NCBI GenBank assembly: GCA_002402825.1
Contig: DHGP01000018.1
Location: forward strand, 9,150-73,149
From: Firmicutes bacterium UBA4795
Lineage (GTDB): Bacteria > Bacillota > Desulfotomaculia > Desulfotomaculales > Nap2-2B
Direction: 5' to 3'
Length of the DNA: 64,000 nucleotides
Shown: in pieces, positions 2,998 to 55,655 of the stretch
Numbering within the stretch: position 1 is the stretch's first letter
Layout: each line of letters opens with the position of its first letter
Made by a program: the position numbers and the translations under genes
The notes under the pieces: generated by a model
Databases searched by the model: none
What the model saw: the letters and a program-made list of their open reading frames with translations, nothing else
What the model was told of the DNA's origin: nothing

Positions 2998-4563
2998 TCA
3001 GTCGCCGGACCTCATGACGACTATTTCCTCCTCTCTCGTAAGGCAGGCATCTTGCCTGTCCACCAGGGCTTTAACCAGTCCCTCTACGGTGTATTCCTGG
3101 GCTACAAGGTCAACCTTTAAACCGGCCTTAATTGCCGTTTGCGCGGTAACCGGTCCAATACAAGCAACAGTGACTTTGGCCAATAAATCAGCTAAATCAG
3201 AGGCGTTTAACAAAGAAATAAAATTGCGTACCGTTGAAGAACTAGTGAAGGTAATAACATGAATGTGCCCTTTGGCCAGCATAAACCGGACCAGGTCTAT
3301 ATTACCCTTATCGCCGGCTACTTGGTAAGCGGTTACTTCATCTACGTGTGTCCCTAGGTCAGTTAAGGCTGTAACCAGCACGTCTCTCGCTCCTTTTGCC
3401 CGGGGCAGTAAAACCCGTGCTCCAGGAAAAAGCCTATATTTCAGGCCGGCACTGATTTCCTCCGCCTGGTAGCTTTCCGGCACAAAGTCCACCATCAAAC
3501 CGAAATTTTCCAAAGCTTCTTTTGTGCGGGGACCTATAGCGCCCAGGTGAATATCTTTTAAGCGGCGAATATCCCCTTTTTGCTCCGCCAGCCGCCTGAA
3601 AAAAAACTTGACTCCGTTTACGCTGGTAAAAATTATCCAATCATAACTTTCTATAAAAGCAATGGCTTGATCTAAAGGGCCAAAATCATCGGGCGGGGTA
3701 ATTTTAATGGTAGGAAACTCAAAGGGCTCCCCTCCCAAAGCGGCAATCGCCCGGGATAAAGAATCGGCCTGCTCCCGGGCGCGAGTAACCATGACCCTTT
3801 TTCCAAACAAAGGTTTCTTTTCCCGCCATTTTAATTTTTCTCTTAAAGCTACTACGTCACCTACTACTACCACCACCGGGTTGGTAAGGCCTGCTACGGT
3901 TGCTTTTTGGGCAATATCAGCCAGAGTACCCACATAAGTTTGTTGTTCACTAAAAGTCCCGCAGTAGATTAGCGCGACCGGTGTTTCCGGCGCTCGTCCC
4001 GCCTGGATTATTCTGGCAGTAATTGACTTTAAATTGGCCATACCCATTAAAATTACCAGTGTTCCTACGGCTGAGGCAATTTCTTCCCAGTTAACCCCAT
4101 CCTCACCTTTATCTACGTCTTGATTGCCAGTAACAATTCCTAAACTGGAAGCATAACCCCGGTGGGTAAGCGGAATTCCCGCGTAAGCCGGTACCGCTAT
4201 GGCTGACGTAACCCCGGGTACTATTTCAAAGGTTAAATTATGCGCGGCTAAAGCTTCTGCTTCTTCGCCACCCCGGCCAAAAACGAAGGGGTCTCCTCCT
4301 TTAAGCCGGACTACCACCTTGCCTTCTTTGGCCCGGCTTACTAAAAGACGGTTAATTTCCTCTTGCCTTAAGCTGTTGCTGCCCGGTATTTTTCCTACAT
4401 AAACTAATTCGGCCTCAGGTCTGGCGTATTTAAGCAAAACCGGGTTGATTAAACGGTCGTAAATGATAACTTGCGCTTCTTGAAGACATCTTATCCCTTT
4501 TAGCGTGATCAGTCCTGGGTCGCCCGGCCCTGCACCCACCAGATAAACAATTCCTTTTAGCAC
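2998..4563 (-). CDS. cobA-hemD: Fused uroporphyrinogen-III C-methyltransferase / uroporphyrinogen-III synthase
   Basis: 521 aa. The N-terminus VGAGPGDPGLITLKG is a tetrapyrrole methylase motif. The C-terminal ~250 aa resemble HemD. Confidence 0.88.
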   Translation of the reverse strand: MLKGIVYLVGAGPGDPGLITLKGIRCLQEAQVIIYDRLINPVLLKYARPEAELVYVGKIPGSNSLRQEEINRLLVSRAKEGKVVVRLKGGDPFVFGRGGEEAEALAAHNLTFEIVPGVTSAIAVPAYAGIPLTHRGYASSLGIVTGNQDVDKGEDGVNWEEIASAVGTLVILMGMANLKSITARIIQAGRAPETPVALIYCGTFSEQQTYVGTLADIAQKATVAGLTNPVVVVVGDVVALREKLKWREKKPLFGKRVMVTRAREQADSLSRAIAALGGEPFEFPTIKITPPDDFGPLDQAIAFIESYDWIIFTSVNGVKFFFRRLAEQKGDIRRLKDIHLGAIGPRTKEALENFGLMVDFVPESYQAEEISAGLKYRLFPGARVLLPRAKGARDVLVTALTDLGTHVDEVTAYQVAGDKGNIDLVRFMLAKGHIHVITFTSSSTVRNFISLLNASDLADLLAKVTVACIGPVTAQTAIKAGLKVDLVAQEYTVEGLVKALVDRQDACLTREEEIVVMRSGD

Positions 4564-4603: not shown

Positions 4604-5527
4604 TCATTTTTGCCAGGCGTATGGCCATACGCCCCTACTGTGAAATTTTTCAGCCAGTGTTTCCCCCAGCCATGTGGCTTCGGTCACCTTCCCGGTGATA
4701 GTATTCCGGACAAGTTGTTTGCCATTTTCTGAGGCCACCATACCGGTAATGGTAAGTTTATCTCCTTCAACTTCTCCTAAAACGCCAATGGGATATTGGC
4801 AGCCGACCCCCAATTTACGTAAAAAGGCTCTTTCGGCTGTAACCGTTGCGTTGGAAGAAGGATGGTTTAAAGAAAAAGCTATTTGAGCAACTCGACTGTC
4901 CCCTGCCCTTCCTTCAATACCGATTGCTCCTTGGGCCGCCGCCGGTAAACAGATAGAAAAGGGGATTATTTCGGTGATATTTTTAGCCAGCCCTAGACGT
5001 TGCAATCCAGCCACCGCTATAACAATCCCATCTAATTTTTGCTCATCCATTTTTTTAAGCCGGCGGTCAATATTCCCGCGTAAAGGGACAATTCTGAAAT
5101 CAGGCCGGTAATAAAGCAGTTGCGCGGCGCGACGCAAACTGCTGGTGCCGATAACCGCGTTTTTAGGAAGAGAGCCTAAGGCTAGACCTGTCCGTGAAAC
5201 AAGAGCGTCTGCCGCGTTTCCCCGCGGGCATACCGCCAGCAAAACTAATCCTGTTGGCAACTGGGTGGGCAGGTCTTTTAAGCTATGCACGGCCAGATCA
5301 ATTTCCCCCTTTAAAAGAGCCAGCTCTAATTCCTTAGTAAACAAACCCATGCCACCCGCTTGAACTAAGGACGCCTTTGCAAATTGGTCACCGGTAGTTT
5401 TAATTTTAACCGGCAAAAAGTCAATATCGCGGTGTTTTTCTTTCAAACACTTAATTACCCATTCTGTCTGCCAAAGAGCTAATTTACTTCCTCTGGTACC
5501 AATAAGAAGCTTCTTTTGCATCCTCAC
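4604..5527 (-). CDS. hemC: Hydroxymethylbilane synthase (porphobilinogen deaminase)
   Basis: IGTRGSKLALWQ N-terminal signature and cofactor Cys context GVGCQYPIG. It overlaps the hemA stop, so the start may be the second Met at 5521. Confidence 0.92.
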   Translation of the reverse strand: MRMQKKLLIGTRGSKLALWQTEWVIKCLKEKHRDIDFLPVKIKTTGDQFAKASLVQAGGMGLFTKELELALLKGEIDLAVHSLKDLPTQLPTGLVLLAVCPRGNAADALVSRTGLALGSLPKNAVIGTSSLRRAAQLLYYRPDFRIVPLRGNIDRRLKKMDEQKLDGIVIAVAGLQRLGLAKNITEIIPFSICLPAAAQGAIGIEGRAGDSRVAQIAFSLNHPSSNATVTAERAFLRKLGVGCQYPIGVLGEVEGDKLTITGMVASENGKQLVRNTITGKVTEATWLGETLAEKFHSRGVWPYAWQK

Positions 5528-14965: not shown

Positions 14966-15056
14966 GTAGGGGCGTATTGCCATACGCCCATATAAAGAAT
15001 GATAAAACATTTGATGTAGGGGCGTATTGCCATACGCCCCTACACGAATGTTTCAT
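14966..15056. repeat. REP doublet, family A (GTAGGGGCGTAT-TGCC-ATACGCCCCTAC)
   Basis: Copy 1 (14966-~14993) has a decayed 3' arm. Copy 2 (15016-15043) has a perfect 12-bp stem, and the flanking AAACATT/AATGTTT extend the stem. Confidence 0.85.
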
Positions 15057-16593: not shown

Positions 16594-17184
16594 ATGAAAT
16601 TCAATAATGAAATACACCATCGAAGGTCAATTAGATTAAAGGATTATGATTATTCACGGGCAGGTGCGTATTTCGTGACAATATGCACACACAATAGGGA
16701 ATGTCTATTTGGTGAGATTTTAAGTGGGAAGATGATAATAAATGATTTTGGAAGAATTGCCTACGATGAGTGGCTTAATACATTTCAGATACGAAGCAAT
16801 GTTGAATTAGATAAATTTGTCGTGATGCCCAACCATATCCACGGCATCATGATTATAAATTGTAGGGGCGTATGGCCATACGCCCCTACATTAGGATTAC
16901 AATATAATCGCGGGATGGGTATTTCGCAATGTCACCCTACAGCGGAATTTCGGTCACCATCCCAAACGATTGGTGCAATCGTGCGAGGTTATAAGTCAGC
17001 AGTTACTAAAAAAATAAATACATTGCGAAATACACCCAAAATGCCCTTTTGGCAACGTGCTTATTACGAACATGTGATTAGAAATGAAGATGATTTAAAC
17101 CAGGTTCGAGAATACATTATAAACAATCCCCTAAAATGGGAGCTAGATCGGGAAAATCCCAGTAATATAGAAAAAAGGAAGTAG
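16594..17184 (+). CDS. REP-associated tyrosine transposase-like protein (Y1/HUH, IS200/IS605 superfamily)
   Basis: HUH motif MPNHIHGIM and C-terminal FWQRAYYEHVIRNEDDLNQVREYIINNP. 196 aa. Wedged between hsdS and hsdM. Confidence 0.8.
   Translation: MKFNNEIHHRRSIRLKDYDYSRAGAYFVTICTHNRECLFGEILSGKMIINDFGRIAYDEWLNTFQIRSNVELDKFVVMPNHIHGIMIINCRGVWPYAPTLGLQYNRGMGISQCHPTAEFRSPSQTIGAIVRGYKSAVTKKINTLRNTPKMPFWQRAYYEHVIRNEDDLNQVREYIINNPLKWELDRENPSNIEKRK
16862..16889. repeat. Family A REP, perfect 28-nt palindrome, inside the RAYT-like CDS
   Basis: GTAGGGGCGTATGG|CCATACGCCCCTAC, translated in frame as CRGVWPYAPT. Confidence 0.9.
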
Positions 17185-37855: not shown

Positions 37856-38810
37856 AAGCACAAGTGCAAGTAGGGACGGTTCTTCTTGCTTGCCTAATCG
37901 GGAGTTTAAAGCTGTCTATAAAGAATTAAAGCAGCTTTTGCCTGACCAGGTGCGCATACAAGAGCCAATGTCCCAACATACTACTTTTCGTATTGGCGGA
38001 CCGGCGGATATTTTAGTTGAGCCCCGCACAATAGCTGCTTTAAGGGAAACAATTTCTTACGCTAAAGTCAAAAATATCCCTGTCTTTGTTATGGGGGCCG
38101 GTTCCAACTTACTGATCCGTGACGGTGGAATCAGGGGCATGGTAGTAAAAATAGGTCGTCACCTGGCCAGGATTAAAATAGATGGCGTTGTGGTTATGGC
38201 AGAAGCAGGAGCAACCCTGTCACACTTAGCCCTGACTTGCTGTCAAGCCAGCCTGGCCGGTTTTGAGTTTGCCGTCGGCATCCCTGGAACAGTGGGGGGT
38301 GCAGTCGTAATGAACGCTGGGGCAGAAGGTCGCGCCATGAGTGATGTAGTGCAGGAAGTTCTGGTTCTTAACCAGAAAGGTTGTTTTGATCGGCTGAAAA
38401 AAGAGGATTTGGGATTTGGCTACCGGAGCAGTAATTTATTAGATCACAATCAGATAGTGGTAGAAGTAGTTTGCCAGGGAACACCTGATCAAAAGGAACG
38501 TATTCAGGAAAGGCAAAAAAAACATCTCCACCACCGGCAGAATACCCAACCGCTTATGTACCCTAACGCCGGCAGTGTTTTTAAAAATCCTCCTGGTTTT
38601 ACCGCCGGATACCTAATTGAACAGGCAGGAGCAAAGGGACGGCAAATTGGAGCAGCTAAAGTATCGTTAAAGCACGCTAATTTTATTATTAACTTAGGTA
38701 TGGCACGGGCCAAAGAGGTGCAAGATCTTATATCCCAGGTTCAAGAAATGGTGAAGCAACGCTTTGGCATCCAATTGGCCTTAGAGATTCAAATAGTCGG
38801 AGAGGATTAA
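37842..38810 (+). CDS. murB: UDP-N-acetylenolpyruvoylglucosamine reductase
   Basis: HTTFRIGGPADILV FAD-binding N-terminus. The first ~18 codons are an atypical low-complexity extension, and an alternative TTG start lies near 37887. Confidence 0.88.
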   Translation: MNASKSTSASRDGSSCLPNREFKAVYKELKQLLPDQVRIQEPMSQHTTFRIGGPADILVEPRTIAALRETISYAKVKNIPVFVMGAGSNLLIRDGGIRGMVVKIGRHLARIKIDGVVVMAEAGATLSHLALTCCQASLAGFEFAVGIPGTVGGAVVMNAGAEGRAMSDVVQEVLVLNQKGCFDRLKKEDLGFGYRSSNLLDHNQIVVEVVCQGTPDQKERIQERQKKHLHHRQNTQPLMYPNAGSVFKNPPGFTAGYLIEQAGAKGRQIGAAKVSLKHANFIINLGMARAKEVQDLISQVQEMVKQRFGIQLALEIQIVGED

Positions 38811-38820
38811 AAACAACCTA

Positions 38821-38925
38821 GTTAAGAGGTAAGAGGTGAGCGGTTAGAAGTGAGAATTTCATATCTCATTTTTCAGTTAAGAATTTTAATTCCCACTTCT
38901 GACTTCTTACATCCCACTTCTCAGT
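38821..38925. repeat. Heptamer-array inverted repeat, family D (AAGAGGT / AGAAGTG type), filling the murB-murA spacer
   Basis: The left arm is TAAGAGG TAAGAGG TGAGCGG TTAGAAG TGAGAAT. The right arm is ATTCCCACTTCTGACTTCTTACATCCCACTTCTC. The segment 38844-38857 pairs with 38889-38902 at 13/14 positions. Confidence 0.8.
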
Positions 38926-38940
38926 TAAGAGGTGAAAAAA

Positions 38941-40188
38941 ATGGCCAAGTTTATAATTACCGGTGGTAACCGCCTAAAAGGAACTATAACCGTAAACGGC
39001 AGTAAAAATGCTACCTTGCCTATATTAGCTGCCAGCATTCTAGCCGCTGGTGAATGTATTATTCACGAAGTGCCGTATCTGCAGGACATTACTACCATGA
39101 GCAATGTGCTGGAAACTCTGGGAGCAAAAGTCAAACGGGAAGGAACTACTTTAATTATAAATACCCGTGATATTTATAGTTGGGAAGTAGGAGAAAATTT
39201 AATGCGCCAAATGCGGGCTTCTAACTTGGTCTTAGGCCCTTTATTGGGACGCTTTAAGCAGGTAAAAATTTCTTACCCTGGTGGCTGTAATATTGGTTCC
39301 CGGCCCATGAACTTACATCTAAAAGGCTTAAGGGCCTTAGGGGCCGACATAAACGAAAGATACGGCTATATTAACGTAAAGGCCAAAGACTTAAAGGGAA
39401 CCGAAATACACCTGGATGTACCAAGTGTCGGGGCTACCGAAAATATTCTGATGGCGGCGGTAATGGCTAAAGGAGTAACTATAATTAGAAACGCCGCCAG
39501 GGAACCAGAAATAGTTGATTTACAGAATTTTCTTAACTACCTGGGGGCAAAAATCAGAGGGGCCGGAACAAGTTTAATTAAAGTTGAAGGGACTACCTCC
39601 CTGCATGAGGCCGAACATACCGTTATTCCCGACCGTATTGAGGCAGGTACATATTTAATTGGGACGGCAATTACCGGCGGAGACGTTACGGTAACCAACG
39701 TTATTCCGGAACATCTGGAATCACTACTGGCCAAGTTAAAAGAGATAGGGGTTAAGGTGGAGGTTAAAGATGAGGCCATAAACATAAGCTCAACTGGTTG
39801 CTTTAAAGCTACCAACATTAAAACAATGCCTTACCCTGGTTTTCACACGGATTTGCAACCCCAAATGATGGCCTTGCTGACCCTGGCCCAGGGAACTAGT
39901 GTAATTACCGAAACAATCTTTGAAAACCGCTACCAGCACGTTAGTGAGTTAAGACGCTTGGGGGCTGAAATTACCGTAGAAGGGCAAACCGCCATCATTA
40001 AAGGAGTAAAAAAATTAAGCGGGGCATCTGTAGAAGCAACTGACTTAAGGGCTGGGGCAGCCTTATTATTGGCTGCCTTGGCCGCGGAAAACAGTACGGT
40101 CATTGAAGGGGTGGAACACATTGACCGTGGTTATGAACAAATGGAGAATAAATACAATACTTTAGGAGCTAACATTATACGTGTTTAA
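38941..40188 (+). CDS. murA: UDP-GlcNAc 1-carboxyvinyltransferase
   Basis: MAKFIITGGNRLKGTITVNGSKNA N-terminus. SD AAGAGGTGA lies 5 nt upstream of ATG 38941. Confidence 0.92.
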   Translation: MAKFIITGGNRLKGTITVNGSKNATLPILAASILAAGECIIHEVPYLQDITTMSNVLETLGAKVKREGTTLIINTRDIYSWEVGENLMRQMRASNLVLGPLLGRFKQVKISYPGGCNIGSRPMNLHLKGLRALGADINERYGYINVKAKDLKGTEIHLDVPSVGATENILMAAVMAKGVTIIRNAAREPEIVDLQNFLNYLGAKIRGAGTSLIKVEGTTSLHEAEHTVIPDRIEAGTYLIGTAITGGDVTVTNVIPEHLESLLAKLKEIGVKVEVKDEAINISSTGCFKATNIKTMPYPGFHTDLQPQMMALLTLAQGTSVITETIFENRYQHVSELRRLGAEITVEGQTAIIKGVKKLSGASVEATDLRAGAALLLAALAAENSTVIEGVEHIDRGYEQMENKYNTLGANIIRV

Positions 40189-40298
40189 AGTTAAAATTTT
40201 TTTAACCTTATCTGGGACAAGTATTGTTTTGCTTTATTTTTTAAAAAATATATGATATAAGTTGCTTATGGATAAAACTTGATTTAAATACCGGATGA

Positions 40299-41159
40299 AT
40301 GAGGTTTTCAAGGAACAAACAACTAAAAAAATTTAAGTTAAACGCGGGAGAAAGCATATTTTTTATTTTCCTGGTTATTCTGGCGGCTTATATTTTCTGG
40401 CGGTCATCTTTATTTGAAGTTAAGGAAATTTTTGTCCAGGGCAACCATTCTTTAACCACCACCGAGATTGTAGCTTTATCCCGGATTAATGAGGGGACAA
40501 ATATTTTTAAAGTTAATTTATCCCAGGCAGGCGAAAGAATTAAGGCTCTGCCGTTGGTTAAAGAAGTGCATTTAACCCGTAAATTTCCTTCCCAAATAAT
40601 TATAGAAATAAAAGAACGCTACCCGGTGGCCTTGGTCCCGGTAAAGGGTGGTTTTGCAGAAGTAGATAGAGAAGGGGTATATTTAAGGCCAGGTAAAATA
40701 AGCTCTTCAGGACTGCCGGTAATAATGGTAACCAAAGAAAAAGCATCTAATGGTAGGTCAATCAGCGGCACAGGCCAAGGGCAGGCTTCGGGAAGGCAGG
40801 ATGCCTACCCTACAAGCCTACCTTCCCTTCAGCCTGTGGTTGACAGTAAACCGGCCCAAGCTCTTAAACCAGGGCAGGTTTTTGACTTTCCCGGGTTAAA
40901 AATTGCTTTAAAAGTAATTAATGCCTTGCCCCGCGAATTAATAACCAGTCTTTCCGAAGTTTACGTGGACAAACAAGGACAAATATTCCTTTACCACTTA
41001 AGCGGGGTAGAATGTCGCTTGGGTCAACCGGTAAATATAACTAAGAAGGGGATAATCCTTAACCAACTTTTTAGCCAGCTTAAAAACACGCGCCAGTTTG
41101 AATATATTGATATTTCCCTTGCCGGTTCACCGGTGGTAAAATATAAGGATGGTAAATAA
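40299..41159 (+). CDS. ftsQ: FtsQ/DivIB cell-division protein carrying a repeat-derived insertion
   Basis: N-terminal TM, a POTRA-like region (FEVKEIFVQGNHSLTTTEI), and the position after murA. Confidence 0.8.
   Translation: MRFSRNKQLKKFKLNAGESIFFIFLVILAAYIFWRSSLFEVKEIFVQGNHSLTTTEIVALSRINEGTNIFKVNLSQAGERIKALPLVKEVHLTRKFPSQIIIEIKERYPVALVPVKGGFAEVDREGVYLRPGKISSSGLPVIMVTKEKASNGRSISGTGQGQASGRQDAYPTSLPSLQPVVDSKPAQALKPGQVFDFPGLKIALKVINALPRELITSLSEVYVDKQGQIFLYHLSGVECRLGQPVNITKKGIILNQLFSQLKNTRQFEYIDISLAGSPVVKYKDGK
40782..40836. repeat. Family B element copy B1 (32-nt core plus inverted partial copy) in frame in ftsQ
   Basis: The core is CAGGCTTCGGGAAGGCAGGATGCCTACCCTAC (40782-40813). The arm 40817-40836 pairs back to 40782-40800 (16 bp with an internal loop). 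It encodes QASGRQDAYPTSLPSLQP. Confidence 0.85.
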
Positions 41160-41868
41160 AGCTATATTTAAAAATAAAAGTATTTACTTTATAATGGCTT
41201 TTATTGCGCTAAGCCTGGGTTTTATTTTTGCTTTGCAGTTTCGCACTAATACCATGGTTAAACAAAGTCCTCCCTTACAGCAAACACAAGAATTGGCGGC
41301 GCGTTTAAAAACTGCCCGGGAGGAAAATGAGGCTTTGCAAAACCGGGTGGATAAATTACGCCGGCAATTAGACCAGGTTACCGATAGCTTTTACTTAACC
41401 ACCCTGCACCAAGAATTAAGCAAAACCCGTATTGCGGCTGGAATGACGGAATTAACCGGTCCTGGAATAGAAGTTACTCTTAGTGACAGTAATAAAAAAA
41501 TTCAGCCTGGTGAAAATCCCAATCTTTATGTCTTGCACGATGAAGATATTTTAAAGGTTATTAATGAATTAAAGGCGGCCGGCGCAGAAGCTATAGCCCT
41601 TAATGGTCAGCGTCTTTTAGCCACCAGTGAGATTCGCTGTCTTGGTCCCACCGTGCTTACTAATAAAAATCAGCGGCTTACTCCTCCCTTTGTAATTACG
41701 GCCATTGGTAATCCTGGTAATTTGGTTAACGCTTTGCAAATGCGCGGGGGAATAGTGGATCAGCTTCGTTTCTGGGAAATTCAAGTAACGATTAAGTCTA
41801 TGCCCAATATTATTATACCAGCTTATACCGGCCAGTTGCGCTTTGATTACGCCAAACCGGTAAGTTAA
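41149..41868 (+). CDS. DUF881-family division-associated membrane protein
   Basis: N-terminal TM, a coiled coil, and TGPGIEVTL...DEDILKVINELKAAGAEAIALNGQR. Confidence 0.75.
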   Translation: MVNKAIFKNKSIYFIMAFIALSLGFIFALQFRTNTMVKQSPPLQQTQELAARLKTAREENEALQNRVDKLRRQLDQVTDSFYLTTLHQELSKTRIAAGMTELTGPGIEVTLSDSNKKIQPGENPNLYVLHDEDILKVINELKAAGAEAIALNGQRLLATSEIRCLGPTVLTNKNQRLTPPFVITAIGNPGNLVNALQMRGGIVDQLRFWEIQVTIKSMPNIIIPAYTGQLRFDYAKPVS

Positions 41869-41927
41869 CCGACGATTTTCGAATAACGAATTATAAATGG
41901 TAAAAAAACTGAAAAGGTGGGAATAAT

Positions 41928-42662
41928 ATGAACCAAAAATTATACCTTTCTGTTTTTTTAGTGGCCTTAATTATAGGTTTAATGGCGGCCTTGCAGTTCC
42001 GCACCACCAACTTTATAGAGCAAGGTGTTCCCCTTGGCCGATCCCAGGAATTATCCGTTGATTTAAACCAGTTAAATGCAGAGAAAAAACAATTGGAGAC
42101 AGAAGTTAAAGATTTAACGCAAAAAATTCAGCAGACCACTAAAGGACAGGCTTCGGGCAGGCAGGATGCCTACCCTACTTTGGCAAAAGAGGTTCTAGTA
42201 GGTGAATTAAAAAAAGCCCGATTAGGTGCTGGCCTGACCGCGGTATCGGGGCCGGGTATTGAAATAACCCTGGATAATCCTTCGGCTGAACAAAACAAAG
42301 GCCTGGAAGATACCATGTTTGCTATCCGGGATGAGGATTTACTGCACCTGGTAAACGAACTAAACGGGGCCGGAGCAGAAGCAGTGTCAATTAACGGACA
42401 AAGAATTCTGGCTACCAGTGAAATCCGTTGGGCCGCTCCTTTTATTAACGTTAATTTAACCAGAATAGCCCCGCCTTACCATATACTGACGATTGGTTCA
42501 CCCAAAAATTTAACCAGCGCTTTAGAAATATCCGGTGGATTGGCTGAATATTTACAAAGCCTTGGCGCGAAGGTAAAAATTCAACCTTATGAAAATTTAA
42601 CCGTTCCTGGTTATACCGCCCCAATTGAGTTTCGCTACGCCAAACCAACAAAAGGAGAGTAG
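41928..42662 (+). CDS. DUF881-family protein (paralogue) carrying a repeat-derived insertion
   Basis: SGPGIEITL...DEDLLHLVNELNGAGAEAVSINGQR. Confidence 0.75.
   Translation: MNQKLYLSVFLVALIIGLMAALQFRTTNFIEQGVPLGRSQELSVDLNQLNAEKKQLETEVKDLTQKIQQTTKGQASGRQDAYPTLAKEVLVGELKKARLGAGLTAVSGPGIEITLDNPSAEQNKGLEDTMFAIRDEDLLHLVNELNGAGAEAVSINGQRILATSEIRWAAPFINVNLTRIAPPYHILTIGSPKNLTSALEISGGLAEYLQSLGAKVKIQPYENLTVPGYTAPIEFRYAKPTKGE
42147..42178. repeat. Family B element copy B2 in frame in the DUF881 gene
   Basis: CAGGCTTCGGGCAGGCAGGATGCCTACCCTAC is 31/32 identical to B1. It encodes QASGRQDAYPT. Confidence 0.9.
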
Positions 42663-42667
42663 GTAAA

Positions 42668-43012
42668 GTGGGGATATTAGCCTGGGTAATAATTTTAGGA
42701 GGATTAGCCATTGGAGTATTGGTAGGTCTAAACGTTCCTTTTTTAATCCCTCAGCTATACGCTAAATATTTATCGGTAGCGATCCTGGCCGCTCTTGATT
42801 CGGTTTTTGGGGGCATAAGAGCAGCCATGGAAGACAGCTACGACAACACCATTTTCCTGACGGGTTTTTTCAGCAATGCCTTGTTGGCTGCTGGTTTGGC
42901 TTTTATCGGGGAAAGACTAGGCATGGATTTATATCTGGCAGCCGTGGTTGCTTTTGGTGTTCGTCTTTTTCAAAACCTGGCCATTATCCGGCGTCATTTG
43001 CTTAAAAAATAA
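42668..43012 (+). CDS. sbp: Small basic membrane protein (Sbp/DUF1290)
   Basis: 114 aa, hydrophobic, with C-terminal RRHLLKK. Has the conserved position after the DUF881 pair. Confidence 0.65.
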   Translation: MGILAWVIILGGLAIGVLVGLNVPFLIPQLYAKYLSVAILAALDSVFGGIRAAMEDSYDNTIFLTGFFSNALLAAGLAFIGERLGMDLYLAAVVAFGVRLFQNLAIIRRHLLKK

Positions 43013-43117
43013 CTTTTCTTTAAAAAAAGGAGAAACAATATAAATATTGAAATTAAGACTTAAATTAGGGTACTCAAAAAAAGCTTAAATTAATTTAACC
43101 AAAAGGAGGCTTAAGCT

Positions 43118-44170
43118 ATGATTGATTTTGAACTTGAGACAAAACAATTTGCCAATATAAAAGTTATTGGAGTAGGAGGAGGAGGCAATAATGCGGTTAA
43201 CCGAATGATTATCGGCGGTTTAAAGGGAGTTGAATTTATCGCGGTAAATACTGACGCCCAAGCTTTACAATTAACCCAAACGTTAAATAAGGTTCAAATA
43301 GGGGCAAAATTAACCAAGGGATTGGGGGCCGGCGGTAATCCAGAAATTGGTCAAAAGGCGGCTGAGGAAAGCAAAGAGGAGCTTAATCAGATTCTAAAAG
43401 GGGCTGATATGGTCTTTGTAACCGCCGGGATGGGTGGAGGTACGGGAACCGGGGCGGCACCAGTGATTGCGGAGGTAGCTAAAGAATTGGGGGTATTAAC
43501 CGTTGGGGTGGTAACCAAGCCTTTTACTTTTGAGGGGCGCAAACGGATGAATCAGGCGGAGATAGGAATTCAAAATCTTAAAGAAAAAGTAGATACCTTA
43601 ATCACTATTCCTAATGACAGGTTATTACAGGTAATTGATAAGCATACTTCTATCGTGGAAGCTTTTCGAATTGCCGACGATGTCTTACGGCAAGGCGTCC
43701 AAGGGATTTCTGATTTAATTGCGGTACCAGGGTTAATCAATTTAGATTTTGCCGACGTCAAAACCATCATGAAAGATACTGGTTCAGCACTAATGGGAAT
43801 TGGGGTGGCCAAGGGTGAAAACAGGGCCACTGAAGCAGCTAAAATAGCCATCTCCAGTCCGTTACTGGAGACCTCAGTAGAAGGAGCCAAAGGGGTTTTA
43901 TTAAATATTACAGGCGGAACTTCCCTAACTTTATTTGAAGTTAATGGCGCCGCAGAAATTATCTTCCAGGCGGCAGACCCGGAAGCTAATATTATTTTTG
44001 GAGCAGTAATTGAAGAAAACATGGAAGAAGAAGTCCGGGTTACGGTTATTTCCACAGGCTTTGACCAAAAAAGGGTAAAAAGAGAACGCATCCTGCCAGA
44101 GCTAGAAATAAAACCTTTTACCGACCATGAAGAACTAGACATTCCGGCCTTTTTACGCCGGCGCTATTAA
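43118..44170 (+). CDS. ftsZ: Cell-division GTPase FtsZ
   Basis: [13 protein letters not shown] and the tubulin signature [10 protein letters not shown]. Confidence 0.96.
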
Positions 44171-44185
44171 AAATGATTCTTTTGT

Positions 44186-45742
44186 TTATAACTTAAGTTT
44201 TATAAAAGAACGTAAACGGTTTAAATCGTAACTGTAAATACCGCCGGTAAGATATAAAAAGATAGAATAACATAGGGCCCCAATTAGCAAAAGATTAATG
44301 GTTTTAAAATTAGCTGAACCAAAAAAAACAGGCAGAAAAAGTTTCGTTTGCCAAATAACCAGGGCCATACCGGTTGAGGCCAAAAGAGGTTTAGCTACAC
44401 AGTAATTAAAATCAAGGGGTAAACGGACTAGTGTTTTTAAGTCGTAGTAGTTTAAACCGGCCAGAATAAAGTAGCTGATTAACATAGCCAGAACAGTTCC
44501 TTTTATCCCTAGTTGAGGCAGCGCCGTCAGATAATAAATACCGGTAATTTTAAAAGCGGAGGCAATTACCAGATTTTTAAGGGGGCGGGCGGCATATCCT
44601 AAGCCCTGTAAAATACCGGTAAAAGTCTGTTGGAGATATAAAAAGGGGCCTCCTAAAGCTAAAAGACCTAAAATAGCTCCTGCTGCTTCGTAGCCGTAAA
44701 ATAAAGCGCATAATTCATCAGACAACTGGTAAAATACAGCTACGGCGGGCAAACCCGTCAGCATGGTTACCCGTAAAGATTCTTCGATACGTGTTCGGAT
44801 AAGATAATGATCATTTTGAGCCGCAGCTTCACTTACGGCTGGAATCAAAGTAGTAGCCAGGGAAGCGGTAACAATGCTGGGTATATAAAGCAAGGACTCC
44901 GCAATACCGGTAAGCTGTCCAAAAACAGCGGTAGCCTGGGAATAGGTTAAGCCCGCCGTCTGGAGTCTACCGGGGATAAGCAAAGCTTCTATAGCCGAAG
45001 ATATAGTAGAAATAAAGCGAATAAAGGTTACGGGAATTGCGAGTTGAAAAATTTGCGTCAGCACGGTAAGAAGTTTTTCCGGTAAGAAAGGAATTGTTTT
45101 TTTAAAACGAGGCCGTCGGCGAACGTAGATATACAGCATCAGTAAAAAGCCCACAAATTCACCAATAACAATTCCTATCGCCAGTCCCATCACCGTGTAT
45201 TCAACCCCGTAAGGTAGCATAAAATAAGCAATAATTAAGCCGCTGGTTACTCTGACTAACTGCTCCACCACCTGGGTAACCGCCGTAGGGGTCATTTGTT
45301 GTAACCCCTGAAAAAATCCCCGGAAAGCGGAGCACAAGGAAACGATAAGCAAAGCAGGGGTGAAGCAAAAGAAGCTGTAGATAACTTTAGGATGGGCTAA
45401 AAAGTATTTTTGTAACCAGGGTACGCTGATCAAAAATAAAACGCTAAAAAACAAGCTGCTAAAAGTTAAACAAATAAGTGAGATATATAAAACGCGGTAA
45501 GCTTCCCGCAAATTACCACAAGCCGTCTTTTCAGCCACCAGTTTAGCTACAGCTACGGGGATACCGGCCGTAGCCAGAATTAAAGCAAGGACATAAATGG
45601 GGTAAATCATATTAAATAATCCTACCCCTTCCGGTTGAATGAGACGGAGCATTATAATTTGGTAAACAAAACCAATAAAATGATTAAAAAAACTGGCTAA
45701 AAGAAGAATTAAGGTGCCGCCAAGAAATGATTGCCGGGTCAT
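44186..45742 (-). CDS. spoVB: Stage V sporulation protein B (MOP/MurJ-type flippase)
   Basis: 518 aa, ~14 TM, with N-terminus RQSFLGGTLILLLASF..GFVYQI typical of SpoVB. Confidence 0.7.
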   Translation of the reverse strand: MTRQSFLGGTLILLLASFFNHFIGFVYQIIMLRLIQPEGVGLFNMIYPIYVLALILATAGIPVAVAKLVAEKTACGNLREAYRVLYISLICLTFSSLFFSVLFLISVPWLQKYFLAHPKVIYSFFCFTPALLIVSLCSAFRGFFQGLQQMTPTAVTQVVEQLVRVTSGLIIAYFMLPYGVEYTVMGLAIGIVIGEFVGFLLMLYIYVRRRPRFKKTIPFLPEKLLTVLTQIFQLAIPVTFIRFISTISSAIEALLIPGRLQTAGLTYSQATAVFGQLTGIAESLLYIPSIVTASLATTLIPAVSEAAAQNDHYLIRTRIEESLRVTMLTGLPAVAVFYQLSDELCALFYGYEAAGAILGLLALGGPFLYLQQTFTGILQGLGYAARPLKNLVIASAFKITGIYYLTALPQLGIKGTVLAMLISYFILAGLNYYDLKTLVRLPLDFNYCVAKPLLASTGMALVIWQTKLFLPVFFGSANFKTINLLLIGALCYSIFLYLTGGIYSYDLNRLRSFIKLKL

Positions 45743-45932
45743 ATTTAAGCCACCTCTTGTTATATTTATGATATTTTACCAGCTTGTATGTGATTTAAGC
45801 CTTTAAAATTGTTTTCTCGTCAGGACAAGGAGATTAGACTTTAATGTAGAATTTGTTTAATGATTATGGTATAAAAGTTGTGACAAGTATAAGCGTATAA
45901 ATAGCCAATTATCTGAAGGAGGCATAAAAATA

Positions 45933-47981
45933 TTGAAAAATTATCCCCGCGAAAAAATTCGTAATATTGGGGTGGTTGCACACGGGGGAGCGGGCAAAAC
46001 CTCCCTGGTAGAGGCCATGCTTTATAACACGGGAGCAATTACCAGATTAGGCCGGGTAGAAGATGGGACGACCACGGCTGACTACCACCCTGAAGAAATC
46101 AACCGTAAGGTAACTATTCACCTCAGCCTGGTACCTTGTGATTGGCAGGACTGTAAACTTAATATTTTAGACACCCCCGGCTACGCTGATTTTATAGGTG
46201 AAGTATACTCGGCTTTACGGGTAGTGGATACAGCCCTTTTTGTGGTTTCAGCCGTGGACGGCGTAGAAGTACAGACGGAGGTTATATGGGAATACGCGGC
46301 CCGGGCTGGTTTACCGGCCCTGGTATTTGTAAACAAAATGGACCGGGAAAACGCTAATTTTTTTAACGTCCTAACCGAATTAAAAGATAAATTAAAGGCT
46401 AATTTTGTCCCCGTTCAGCTTCCGGTTAGTCAGGCTTTGGGCAGTCAGGATGCCCACCCTACTGATTTTACTGGTATTGTTGATCTGATTACCCAAAAGG
46501 TCTACACATATCCGGATAACGGCAAAAGCCACCAAGAAATCCCGGTGCCTGATGATTTAAAAGAAACAATGGCCAGTTACCACGAAAAGCTAGTTGAAGC
46601 AGCAGTAGAAACCAACGATGAATTAATGTTAAAGTATTTAGAAGGGGAAGAGTTAAGTAATGAAGAAATAATTTTGGGCTTAAAAAACGGTATTGCCCAA
46701 GCCAAAGTGATTCCAGTGCTGTGTGGTACAGCCACTAAAAATATGGCGGTGATAAATTTAATGGATATTATTGCTAATTATTACCCGGCTCCGGCTCCAG
46801 CTAATGATGCTCCTTTTTCGGCCCTGGTGTTTAAAACCTTAGTTGACCCTTACGTAGGAAAAATGAACTTCATCCGGGTTTATACGGGAACGCTAAAAAA
46901 CGATATGCTGGTTTACAACAGCACCAAAGAAAAAACAGAAAAAATAGGTCAAATCCTTTATGTCCGGGGTAAAAACTCAGTCCCCACGGCAGAGGTATCG
47001 GCAGGAGATATGGCCGTGTTGGTTAAACTGCAACACACCGCTACTGCTGATACCCTTTGCGAAAAAGATAAGGGTGAAATATTGGAAGGGATTACCTTCC
47101 CAAAACCGGCTCTTTCCGTGGCTATTTCCCCCAAAAGTAAAGGGGATGAAGATAAATTAGGTAATGCCTTAAACAGGCTTTTAGAAGAAGATTTGACGGT
47201 GCAAATTGAAAAAAACCTGGAAACCAAAGAAAACATCCTTACGGGAATGGGTGAGCTACACCTGGAAATTATTCTAGAAAGATTGAAAAGAAAATACGGT
47301 GTCGATGTTTCCATGGAACCACCTAAAGTACCTTACCGGGAAACAATTCGTAAGACCGTTACCATGGAAGGCAAATATAAAAAGCAAACCGGCGGCCATG
47401 GTCAGTACGGGCACGTTTGGCTGCGCCTGGAACCATTGGCAGAAGGCGAATTTGAATTTACCGAAGAAATTTTTGGGGGGGCGGTGCCCAAGCAATATAT
47501 TCCAGGGGTAGAAAAAGGGGTCCGGGAATCTCTTACCGAAGGAGTGCTGGCTGGTTACCCGGTTACAGGAGTAAAAGTAGTCTTGTACGACGGTTCCTAT
47601 CATCCGGTAGACTCTTCCGAACTGGCCTTTAAAATTGCGGCGGCCATGGCTTTTAAAAAAGGGGTGCAAAATGCCGCCCCGGTACTGTTAGAACCAATTA
47701 TGTACGTTGAAGTAACCGTACCGGAGAACTTTATGGGTGACGTAATTAGTGATTTAAACACCAAGCGCGGCCGCATCCTGGGCATGGAACCAGCAGGCAA
47801 CAAAACAGTGGTCAAGGCAATAGCTCCGCTGGCTGAGTTAACACGTTACGCTATTGACTTAAAATCAATGACCCAGGGCAGAGGGTCCTTTGAAATGAAA
47901 TTTAACAACTACGAAGAGGTTCCGGCCCGCCTGGCAGAAGAAATAATTAAAAAAGCCAAGGAGACAACCAACCAGCAGTAA
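45933..47981 (+). CDS. Elongation factor G paralogue (EF-G2-like) carrying a repeat-derived insertion
   Basis: G1 AHGGAGKTS, G3 DTPGYADF and G4 NKMD, with domains II-V present. TTG start. Confidence 0.85.
   Translation: MKNYPREKIRNIGVVAHGGAGKTSLVEAMLYNTGAITRLGRVEDGTTTADYHPEEINRKVTIHLSLVPCDWQDCKLNILDTPGYADFIGEVYSALRVVDTALFVVSAVDGVEVQTEVIWEYAARAGLPALVFVNKMDRENANFFNVLTELKDKLKANFVPVQLPVSQALGSQDAHPTDFTGIVDLITQKVYTYPDNGKSHQEIPVPDDLKETMASYHEKLVEAAVETNDELMLKYLEGEELSNEEIILGLKNGIAQAKVIPVLCGTATKNMAVINLMDIIANYYPAPAPANDAPFSALVFKTLVDPYVGKMNFIRVYTGTLKNDMLVYNSTKEKTEKIGQILYVRGKNSVPTAEVSAGDMAVLVKLQHTATADTLCEKDKGEILEGITFPKPALSVAISPKSKGDEDKLGNALNRLLEEDLTVQIEKNLETKENILTGMGELHLEIILERLKRKYGVDVSMEPPKVPYRETIRKTVTMEGKYKKQTGGHGQYGHVWLRLEPLAEGEFEFTEEIFGGAVPKQYIPGVEKGVRESLTEGVLAGYPVTGVKVVLYDGSYHPVDSSELAFKIAAAMAFKKGVQNAAPVLLEPIMYVEVTVPENFMGDVISDLNTKRGRILGMEPAGNKTVVKAIAPLAELTRYAIDLKSMTQGRGSFEMKFNNYEEVPARLAEEIIKKAKETTNQQ
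46431..46462. repeat. Family B element copy B3 (diverged) in frame in the EF-G paralogue
   Basis: CAGGCTTTGGGCAGTCAGGATGCCCACCCTAC is 29/32 identical to B2. It encodes QALGSQDAHPT in the same frame as B1 and B2. Confidence 0.8.
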
Positions 47982-48016
47982 CTACATTTTACAATAAAAA
48001 AGGATTATAAAATAAA

Positions 48017-50314: not shown

Positions 50315-50372
50315 GTATTTAGGATTCTTTTTTAAATAGAAATAAAAAGAGATTATCGAAAAAGTTCAAATC

Positions 50373-50421
50373 CCTTTCCCCCTAACCCCCTCCCCTTGAA
50401 GGAGGGGGTTAGGGGGAAAGG
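50373..50421. repeat. Perfect 21-bp-stem palindrome in the argJ-argB spacer
   Basis: CCTTTCCCCCTAACCCCCTCC-CCTTGAA-GGAGGGGGTTAGGGGGAAAGG. The outer TCGAAAAA/TTTTTCGA are also inverted. Confidence 0.95.
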
Positions 50422-50464
50422 TCAATAAAAGGGTTTTTCGACATTCTCAAAAAGGGGTTATCAA

Positions 50465-52574: not shown

Positions 52575-52602
52575 GTAGGGGCATATAGCTATACGCCCCT
52601 AC
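52575..52602. repeat. Family A REP between argD and argF
   Basis: GTAGGGGCATAT-AGCT-ATACGCCCCTAC with one mismatch, and an AAAATTGTAG left flank. Confidence 0.9.
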
Positions 52603-53590: not shown

Positions 53591-53618
53591 GTAGGGGCGT
53601 ATTGCTATACGCCCCTAC
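53591..53618. repeat. Family A REP between argF and argG
   Basis: GTAGGGGCGTAT-TGCT-ATACGCCCCTAC, perfect stem, with the same AAAATTGTAG left flank. Confidence 0.9.
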
Positions 53619-54968: not shown

Positions 54969-55655
54969 TTGAAGTCTACGGCCGAAAAAGTAAGTGAACT
55001 GGAAAAGGCAATGATGGAGCTTGTTTACCAATCCAGGCTTACGGAAATGAGACTAAAACAATTAGCGGAGGAAATGATAGATTTCAAGGATGAAATGAAA
55101 GAGTTTAAGGATGAAATGAAAGAGTTTAAGGATGAAATGAAAGAGTTTAAGGATGAAATGAAAGAGTTTAAGGATGAAATGAAAGAGTTTAAGGATGAAA
55201 TGAGGGCCTCCAAGAAAGAAATGGATAAAAAATGGGGTGAATTGGCTAAAAAGATGGGCACCCTGATTGAGGATATTTTTATCCCTTCCTTAGACCTAAC
55301 CATAGAAAAATACTTTAACGTTACTCCACATGACGTAATGCCGCGCCGTAAAGTGAGAAAAAATGGTAAAAGCAAAACCATGGAAATAGATATCCTTGCC
55401 TTAGCCGATAACCAGGCCTTTGTGGTGGAAGTAAAGGCTTCACCAAACAGGTTAGAGTATGTTTATGATTTTATCGAAAAAATAAAAACCATACCTGATT
55501 TTATTCCGGAAATTAAAAACTACAAAGTAATACCCATCTATGCCGCCCTGGATATGGAAGAAAGAACCATAAGTCTCCTTACCAAAAACAATATTTACGC
55601 CATGATTTTAAGAGGAGACATTTTAGAAATAATTAATTTTAAAGACGTAAGTTAA
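54969..55655 (+). CDS. Coiled-coil protein with a C-terminal PD-(D/E)XK nuclease-like fold (DUF3782-like)
   Basis: The N-terminal heptad-repeat region includes (FKDEMKE)x6. The C-terminal EIDILA...VVEVKAS gives a D...ExK arrangement. TTG start. Confidence 0.5.
   Translation: MKSTAEKVSELEKAMMELVYQSRLTEMRLKQLAEEMIDFKDEMKEFKDEMKEFKDEMKEFKDEMKEFKDEMKEFKDEMRASKKEMDKKWGELAKKMGTLIEDIFIPSLDLTIEKYFNVTPHDVMPRRKVRKNGKSKTMEIDILALADNQAFVVEVKASPNRLEYVYDFIEKIKTIPDFIPEIKNYKVIPIYAALDMEERTISLLTKNNIYAMILRGDILEIINFKDVS
55083..55203 (+). repeat. 21-bp in-frame tandem repeat, ~5.8 copies, four of them identical
   Basis: TTYAAGGATGAAATGAAAGAG units begin at 55083, 55104, 55125, 55146, 55167 and 55188 (the last is partial). 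Confidence 0.95.

Follow-up and report, generated by a model that had tools for sequence, protein, structure and literature searches.

Repetitive extragenic palindromes (REPs) of the GTAG and CGTC types that lie within genes were catalogued by Di Nocera, De Gregorio and Rocco in 2013 (PMC3733652). The hosts listed there are Proteobacteria, Cyanobacteria, Chloroflexi, and the PVC group (Planctomycetes, Verrucomicrobia, Chlamydiae); the word "Firmicutes" does not occur. Intragenic REPs are known from Opitutus terrae and others, and the Rickettsia palindromic elements (RPEs) present a kindred phenomenon (PMC3733652). This account concerns a GTAG-tagged repeat, here called family B, in Firmicutes bacterium UBA4795, and in particular the copy within the second of two adjacent DUF881 genes (DUF881 copy 2, or DUF881b). 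It lies in a stretch of 64,000 nucleotides (nt) of contig DHGP01000018.1 (positions 9,150 to 73,149 of the forward strand), hereafter the window. Very probably, this segment is a copy of a GTAG-tagged, non-autonomous element of REP type, which inserted in frame after the split from the closest sequenced relatives and is translated as a tolerated, disordered loop.

Family B shares several properties with the GTAG REPs of the survey (PMC3733652): an imperfect palindrome of 20-40 nt; GTAG at one end; G·T pairing that favours one strand; dispersed copies, of which most in the sampled tiles of the sister genome (that of Peptococcaceae bacterium SCADC1_2_3) appear intergenic; nested or compound arrangements; a gene for a REP-associated tyrosine transposase (RAYT, or RayT) in the genome; and occasional in-frame insertion, adding about 10-30 residues. 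It differs in its host, a Firmicute (Peptococcaceae) from a phylum outside the survey list; in the genes struck, which serve division and translation rather than the repair emphasised in the survey; and in a 23-nt core that, among the matches listed, is identical in several other phyla. The intragenic REP is thus a known phenomenon. What is new is the host phylum, the genes struck, the dating by empty sites, and an account of the common reading frame in terms of target codons.

As the survey reports the work of Ogata et al., RPEs are palindromes that lie in frame in functional, often essential genes and are translated as surface segments, and in this family B is alike. By the same report RPE-1 is longer and confined to Rickettsia, whereas family B copies measure 27-51 nt, are GTAG-tagged and unrelated in sequence, and reside in Peptococcaceae. 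Membership of the RPEs was rejected, the likeness being one of functional analogy only. The IS200/IS605 insertion sequences, whose TnpA (a Y1 HUH enzyme) is a relative of the RAYTs, have in common with family B their hairpin-defined ends, absence of target duplication, a single orientation, and insertion that appears to fall directly 3' of a specific short sequence (..CAGGC for family B). Unlike them, family B has no transposase gene of its own, shows small replacements at its junctions, and follows a target motif that is not universal. Miniature inverted-repeat transposable elements, such as cyanobacterial Nezha, are likewise short and non-autonomous, and the cyanobacterial core of family B lies within a longer TAGACATCTCC...GGAGATGTCTA unit; this assignment was rejected, since the Peptococcaceae copies lack transposase-type terminal inverted repeats and target-site duplication. 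A CRISPR repeat was rejected too: each copy in the window stands alone, kilobases from the next, and arrays in other phyla run head to tail without spacers. A full-text literature search for the repeat sequence returned unrelated primer matches only, and none of the REP-encoded peptides turned up in the supplements of PMC3733652.

The insertion in DUF881 copy 2

Four features define the locus:

41928-42662, + strand: DUF881 copy 2 (YlxW/UPF0749-like), host of the insert; 244 amino acids (aa), with PF05949 at residues 93-239 (E = 5e-45).
41149-41868, + strand: DUF881 copy 1, the adjacent paralogue, without the insert.
42147-42178, + strand: the 32-nt stretch common to family B copies, delimited by repeat scans, empty-site alignment, and public-run contigs.
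42153-42182, + strand: inserted codons S76-L85 (SGRQDAYPTL), which replace one conserved Glu of the orthologues for a net gain of nine residues.

The 32-nt segment, CAGGCTTCGGGCAGGCAGGATGCCTACCCTAC, lies within the 244-aa reading frame and is translated as QASGRQDAYPT (in the context ..KGQASGRQDAYPTLAKEV..); orthologues of DUF881 copy 2 have 235 aa. At the protein level KGQAE has become KGQA-SGRQDAYPTL, and the junction codon has changed from GAG, the conserved Glu, to TTG. The insert occupies a KGQxE turn that is conserved across genera in an alignment of 115 sequences, eight residues ahead of the start of the Pfam DUF881 domain at residue 93.

That alignment, comprising DUF881 copy 2 and 114 homologues, was drawn from a search of 5.8 billion proteins that yielded 206 DUF881 homologues. 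None of the 114 has residues at the position of SGRQDAYPTL, the closest orthologues (85-87% protein identity) included. Comparison with the DNA of four relatives reveals the empty site: GGACAGGC/TGAGGCAAAAG (the slash marks the joint), against GGACAGGC-TTCGGGCAGGCAGGATGCCTACCCTAC-TTTGGCAAAAG in the window, a net gain of 27 nt (nine codons) directly 3' of native ACAGGC. Both junctions are spanned, with 0 mismatches, by Logan contigs from three independent public runs (a hydrocarbon metagenome of 2014 and samples of 2025), in which no joint of the empty (read-through) allele was seen. With both junctions supported by three independent runs, an assembly artefact was rejected. Public-run contigs diverge at 42146/42147 and 42178/42179, and in four metagenome runs the element is covered at about ten times the depth of its flanks. 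(One metagenome scan with the exact 27-nt unit returned 0 matches.)

Relatives at two distances place the event in time. The division and cell wall (dcw) region is 92% identical to the window in the SCADC1_2_3-like lineage (L123, L100) and 88% identical in GCA_002327235.1 (L121). Among the relatives compared, the ftsQ and DUF881b copies occur in the window lineage only. A copy in a paralogue of elongation factor G (EF-G) is present in the window and the SCADC-like lineage and absent from L121 (empty site GGTCAAGC/CAATGATTTT), and two copies, one upstream of trxB and one within a hydrolase gene, occur in the SCADC genome only. Because window-only, sister-only, and common insertions exist, family B has been active repeatedly in both lineages. 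Judged by these sequence comparisons, the DUF881b segment is a recent insertion, made after the split from the closest sequenced relatives.

The effect on the protein was modelled with AlphaFold2 from the 115-sequence alignment (mean predicted local distance difference test score, pLDDT, 80). The model has a membrane helix (residues 3-30), a long helix (36-74), a further helix (84-100), and then the DUF881 fold, whose first strand bears GPGIE. Between the last two helices, pLDDT falls below 50 at residues 76-82, and the insert S76-L85 is this low-confidence stretch. No Pfam or NCBIfam family covering the inserted segment was found. The new residues are most likely a disordered loop that is predicted to be a near-neutral passenger rather than functional.

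The preliminary description of this DNA, made from the sequence alone, had read 42147-42178 as an in-frame repeat in DUF881 copy 2, absent from the paralogue at 41149-41868. Sequence and paralogue alignment bear this out, as does the wider comparison it had suggested, in which paralogue and homologues alike lack the segment. Its placing of the insert in a linker ahead of the conserved domain was essentially right, given the modelled loop between helices and a DUF881 domain that begins at residue 93. It was also correct in holding that orientation and frame agree with those of the ftsQ copy (both on the + strand, 95% identical over 37 nt), and in describing an internal hairpin with a GGA loop and 8/9 base pairs, which holds for the + strand. 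Its inclusion of GQA in the element fails, since these residues are native to the conserved KGQxE turn.

Neighbouring genes on the + strand of the window are murB, murA, ftsQ, the two DUF881 genes, a DUF1290 (sbp-like) gene, and ftsZ.

The element, its copies, and a candidate enzyme

The first five bases of the common stretch, CAGGC at 42147-42151, are native target sequence and not part of the element. The remainder, 42152-42178, is the 27-nt unit of family B in DUF881b, TTCGGGCAGGCAGGATGCCTACCCTAC. Its stem arms (42155-42163 and 42167-42175) flank a loop at 42164-42166, and CTAC at 42175-42178, invariant in all family B copies, is a GTAG tag on the - strand. Read on the + strand, the stem GGGCAGGCA-GGA-TGCCTACCC forms eight of nine pairs, with a C·A mismatch; the - strand reads GTAG-GGTAGGCA-TCC-TGCCTGCCC and forms all nine, including one G·T wobble. 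Only on the - strand, then, is the 9-bp stem perfect, with GTAG on its 5' side. The folding energy of the element is unremarkable (z = -0.16 on the + strand and -1.58 on the -).

A 21-nt core occurs three times in the window at three or fewer mismatches, against no occurrence in 100 shuffles. A repeat finder placed the corresponding 37-nt copies at 40777 (ftsQ), 42142 (DUF881b), and 46426 (the EF-G paralogue); over these 37 nt, identity to the ftsQ copy is 95% for DUF881b and 78% for EF-G. All three lie on the + strand and share a common frame (QASGRQDAYPT or QALGSQDAHPT). Across its 32 nt the DUF881b copy does not differ from the family consensus; the EF-G copy, which is older, shows sequence drift (SQALGSQDAHPT vs GQALGRQDAHPT) and has stem-breaking changes. 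A looser scan adds a fourth copy. The further features are:

40775-40825, + strand: composite copy of about 51 nt, in frame in ftsQ, within an older solo hairpin repeat (GTGGCACAGGCTTCCAGCCTGTGG) present in the relatives' ftsQ.
46431-46462, + strand: older, partly decayed in-frame copy in the EF-G paralogue; net gain of 24 nt after native GGTCAAGC.
3038-3061, - strand: diverged fourth copy (GGACAGGCAAGATGCCTGCCTTAC), in the C-terminal tail of a cobA/hemD fusion gene (2998-4563, - strand).
16594-17184, + strand: RayT-type transposase gene with intact HUH and YY motifs; a candidate for the mobilising enzyme class.

The fourth copy is in sense orientation and in the same frame as the other three, read VDRQDACLT; it contributes to the C-terminal tail (..ALVDRQDACLTREEEIVVMRSGD) of the CobA/HemD fusion protein. 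FtsQ has 286 aa in the window against 270 aa in relatives. The relatives' ftsQ (L118/L123; 6953-6969 of L123) carries a solo hairpin repeat, AGTGGCACAGGCTTCCAGCCTGTGGTTG, read SGTGFQPVV, of which 28 nt recur unchanged in a copy at another place of the sister genome (L005, 1634-1650). In the window's ftsQ (40766-40838) the 51-nt composite sits within this solo repeat, so that repeats of two families are nested.

The predicted RayT protein scores 75.7 bits against NF047646 (NCBIfam REP_Tyr_transpos; cut-off 80) and 28.5 bits against PF01797 (Y1_Tnp; cut-off 23). Its HUH and YY motifs are invariant in the alignment with homologues, and proteins to which the Joint Genome Institute gives the name "REP element-mobilizing transposase RayT" are 55-63% identical to it; a search of PDB sequences gave no match at E <=0.01. 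The gene is flanked by hsdS and hsdM in a type I restriction-modification operon. A REP of the window's other family, GTAGGGGCGTATGGCCATACGCCCCTAC, stands within it, in frame at 16862-16889 (CRGVWPYAPT). In the protein alignment, RAYT homologues from distant taxa have a conserved RGVLQYAPT at the position of RGVWPYAPT, and the REP-encoded peptide seems to belong to the conserved sequence of this RAYT clade, not to a new insertion.

This second REP family of the window, GTAG-tagged as well (GTAGGGGCGTAT-NGCN-ATACGCCCCTAC), occurs at 4616-4638, 14966-14993, 15016-15043, 52575-52602, and 53591-53618. Unlike the window copies of family B, four of these five are intergenic. The sister genome (L100) lacks the copy at 52575, which is thus a lineage-specific insertion; that at 4616 overlaps the last codons of a - strand open reading frame (4604-5527).

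Family B itself is read as a REP of GTAG type because its copies are mostly intergenic in the sister genome, GTAG stands on the strand with the perfect stem, and the window holds a RayT gene. On this reading, a small, GC-rich, GTAG-tagged palindrome inserted into DUF881 copy 2 after the lineage split, adding a net 27 nt immediately 3' of native ACAGGC. The gene stays open, since the added length is divisible by three and no frame of the sense strand holds a stop codon, and SGRQDAYPTL would be translated as a loop at the helix-helix turn upstream of the DUF881 domain. Mobilisation may be due to a HUH tyrosine transposase of RayT type, acting on single-stranded DNA and inserting 3' of a preferred short sequence; microhomology-guided copying from another family B copy would be an alternative route.

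The preferred sites may be (C)ACAGGC-like, a sequence that also forms an arm of a second hairpin repeat, whose loop holds most canonical copies. The native sequence directly before the insert is ACAGGCT in DUF881b, CACAGGC in ftsQ, and CAAGC at the EF-G site of the outgroup, and the first two, independent native sites, match the canonical left arm at 7/7 positions. Canonical copies and those in DUF881b, ftsQ, and EF-G all keep one orientation relative to a 5' ..CAGGC. Neither target-site duplication nor terminal inverted repeats beyond the hairpin were found in the empty/filled pairs examined.

Several further features of the window stand apart from family B. Its GC skew follows gene orientation and is uninformative on replication direction and strand bias. 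A 46-nt indel relative to the sister (L100) at 47962-48009 spans the 3' end of the EF-G paralogue and the adjoining spacer, so the C-terminal residues and stop position of EF-G2 are not conserved. The intergenic spacer at 50370-50422 contains a GC-rich perfect palindrome (CCCTTTCCCCCTAACCCCCTCCCCTTGAAGGAGGGGGTTAGGGGGAAAGG), and its equivalent in the sister (L100) a long GTTAGTT heptamer array followed by CCAAAGA repeats. At 55035-55244, at least seven tandem 21-nt units (AAAGAGTTTAAGGATGAAATG) encode KEFKDEM heptad repeats.

Reading frames and rival explanations

The common frame of the window copies invites an argument from selection: insertion is random, and the only genic copies to survive are those in the single stop-free frame, QASGRQDAYPT. 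The preliminary description had taken this view, adding that the reverse strand contains TAG. The + strand of the element, however, contains no TAA, TAG, or TGA in any frame (f0, QASGRQDAYPT; f1, RLRAGRMPTL; f2, GFGQAGCLPY). On the reverse strand two frames are indeed closed, by the TAGs of GTAGGGTAGG; the third (RVGILPARSL) is open, so four of the six frames, three sense and one reverse, are stop-free.

Other frames are also used. The sister genome has a composite element in frame f2 (GFRQAGCLPY) of an alpha/beta-hydrolase gene (P0121), read as PTGFRQAGCLPYEPV; the 12 residues are absent from an 89%-identical orthologue and from nine further homologues, and the DNA shows a net gain of 36 nt. 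A copy at the aroK-aroB junction of that genome is read in f1 (RAGRMPTL), as a linker or, ambiguously, an intergenic spacer. (It lies at 3120-3143, - strand, of L072, between shikimate kinase and 3-dehydroquinate synthase domains in an uninterrupted 575-codon frame. aroB could begin at an internal ATG (CAGGATGCC; start MPTLPLEDVLVDLG..); alternatively, the two genes may have been fused by the element.) A tally over the window and 18 tiles of the sister genome therefore comes to six events, every one of them sense: f0 accounts for four, f2 for one, and f1 possibly for one. Copies in other frames or orientations had been named as evidence that would count against selection. The hydrolase copy, and possibly that in f1, are of this kind; antisense or gene-breaking copies were not seen in the window and the sampled sister tiles. 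By our own binomial arithmetic, the frame counts do not depart significantly from tolerance of any stop-free frame (p ~0.1-0.3): the probability that all are sense is ~0.18 under a 3:1 expectation, and that of at least four of six in one named frame is ~0.10. The tally is compatible with simple loss of insertions that contain stop codons.

There is, moreover, another source for the common frame. The DUF881b and EF-G inserts both follow native Gly-Gln-Ala codons (GGA-CAG-GC and GGT-CAA-GC), and they share a frame because the junction and its codon phase after Gly-Gln-Ala (CAR-GC) are the same. Target preference probably explains the frame of these two copies better than does frame-specific selection. 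Frame-specific selection can point to all four genic copies of the window, which are sense and in the QASGRQDAYPT frame, and to TAG in two of three antisense frames. With every sense frame open, an f2 insertion proven against an 89%-identical orthologue, an f1 reading at aroK-aroB, four of six events falling short of significance, and identical target codons accounting for DUF881b and EF-G, it is improbable.

It is more doubtful still that (G)RQDA(Y/H)PT functions as a motif in proteins (for example, as a tag for interaction or modification), recruited into several division and translation proteins and kept by selection on the protein. The same peptide does appear in FtsQ, DUF881b, the EF-G paralogue, and the CobA/HemD tail, with three copies inside a 6-kb division gene neighbourhood. 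Yet the ftsQ and DUF881b copies are 95% identical as nucleotides, synonymous positions included, and most copies of this DNA in the sister genome are intergenic, with other frames read there. Close orthologues work without the segment, the older EF-G copy is drifting, and the segment is predicted to be disordered with no Pfam or NCBIfam family over it. Equally hard to sustain is the idea that the hairpin acts as RNA or DNA in the dcw operon (as an mRNA stabiliser, processing site, translational pause, or gyrase/integration host factor-type site) and is kept for that, the peptide being incidental. Effects on mRNA stability and binding of DNA-structuring proteins are reported for REPs (PMC3733652), and the two young copies lie 1.4 kb apart in one operon. 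Against this, the mRNA-strand stem contains the C·A mismatch and folds no better than shuffled sequence (z = -0.16), no T-run follows the hairpin, relatives with the same operon lack both copies, and an Rfam scan of 38000-48000, at E up to 1, found no relevant family.

The preferred reading, a translated REP-type insertion, has points against it as well. The neutrality of the loop is inferred from structure prediction and nothing else. The junctions are not those of clean cut-and-paste: the two bases beside the DUF881b insert (GAG to TTG) differ from all relatives, and the EF-G, hydrolase, and ftsQ events involve composite inserts or small replacements. (Simple cut-and-paste of one fixed unit was accordingly rejected as a full account.) Nor is the target motif universal, as copies also follow CTCCGC, CCCTGC, and AAACC. 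All four family B copies in the window are genic, against mostly intergenic copies in the sister genome. Finally, no RAYT gene flanked by family B (a family-B REPtron) was found in the DNA examined, namely the window and sampled relatives, and the window's RAYT is linked by sequence to the family encoded within its gene (GTAGGGGCGTATGGCCATACGCCCCTAC) and not to family B.

Family B in the sister genome and other phyla

A scan of 185,579 species genomes with AGNCAGGATGCCNACCCTAC returned at least 113 stretches. Among the matches listed, 18 belong to Peptococcaceae bacterium SCADC1_2_3 (JJNX02), the sister genome, and are 91-94% identical to the window where they overlap it. At least 19 exact-core copies occur in these 18 sampled 8-kb tiles, two or three of them within genes. 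Several open reading frames over sister copies were considered and rejected as cases of intragenic insertion, the copies lying upstream of the true starts of coaX, trxB, and an rpn-like gene.

The usual sister form is CCACAGGC-TTC-GGGCAGGCA-GGA-TGCCTACCC-TAC-GAGCCTGTGCCAC; canonical copies are also written CCACAGGC-TTC-hairpin-CTAC-GAGCCTGTG. In these, an outer stem, CACAGGC/GCCTGTG, encloses the family B hairpin. The outer stem also occurs solo, as GTGGCACAGGCTTCCAGCCTGTGG, in the sister genome (L005, L047) and in the relatives' ftsQ at the site of the window's 51-nt composite. Solo CACAGGCTTCCAGCCTGTG hairpins exist too.

Beyond the Peptococcaceae, the exact 23-nt core, GGCAGGCAGGATGCCTACCCTAC, is found among the matches listed in many Cyanobacteria, Holophagae, Acidobacteriota, Planctomycetota, and Verrucomicrobiota. 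Listed cyanobacterial hosts are Microcoleaceae, Phormidium, Floridaenema, Calothrix, Nostoc, and Anabaena, where the core usually lies within the TAGACATCTCC...GGAGATGTCTA unit. Four stretches (L007, L087, L093, and L103) have head-to-tail arrays of the core with periods of 25-30 nt.

A broader and more speculative proposal, which on balance we doubt, would join these observations: family B may be a hairpin element that inserts site-specifically into single-stranded DNA and targets ..CAGGC, present in the arm of a second REP family as well as in its own stem, and this could account for the nested REPs and, within genes, for the hits at Gly-Gln-Ala codons by which unrelated proteins would gain one and the same peptide, with REP/RAYT systems spreading horizontally between phyla. 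REP-RAYT systems are viewed as mainly vertically inherited and lineage-specific. If the proposal is true, the identical core across phyla would mean horizontal spread, contrary to that view. The cross-phylum identity, together with the REP-like sequence conserved in the RAYT gene, may interest those who study REP/RAYT evolution.

For annotation, the results carry a warning: the common peptide (G)RQDA(Y/H)PT is repeat-derived and not a domain. They also correct a tempting argument from selection and offer a testable alternative, a preference for CAGGC targets that are read as Gln-Ala. Empty-site comparisons document a REP-type hairpin that has been recently and repeatedly active in a Firmicute lineage, and essential-looking genes of the division cluster, ftsQ and DUF881, appear able to absorb its inserts as loops.

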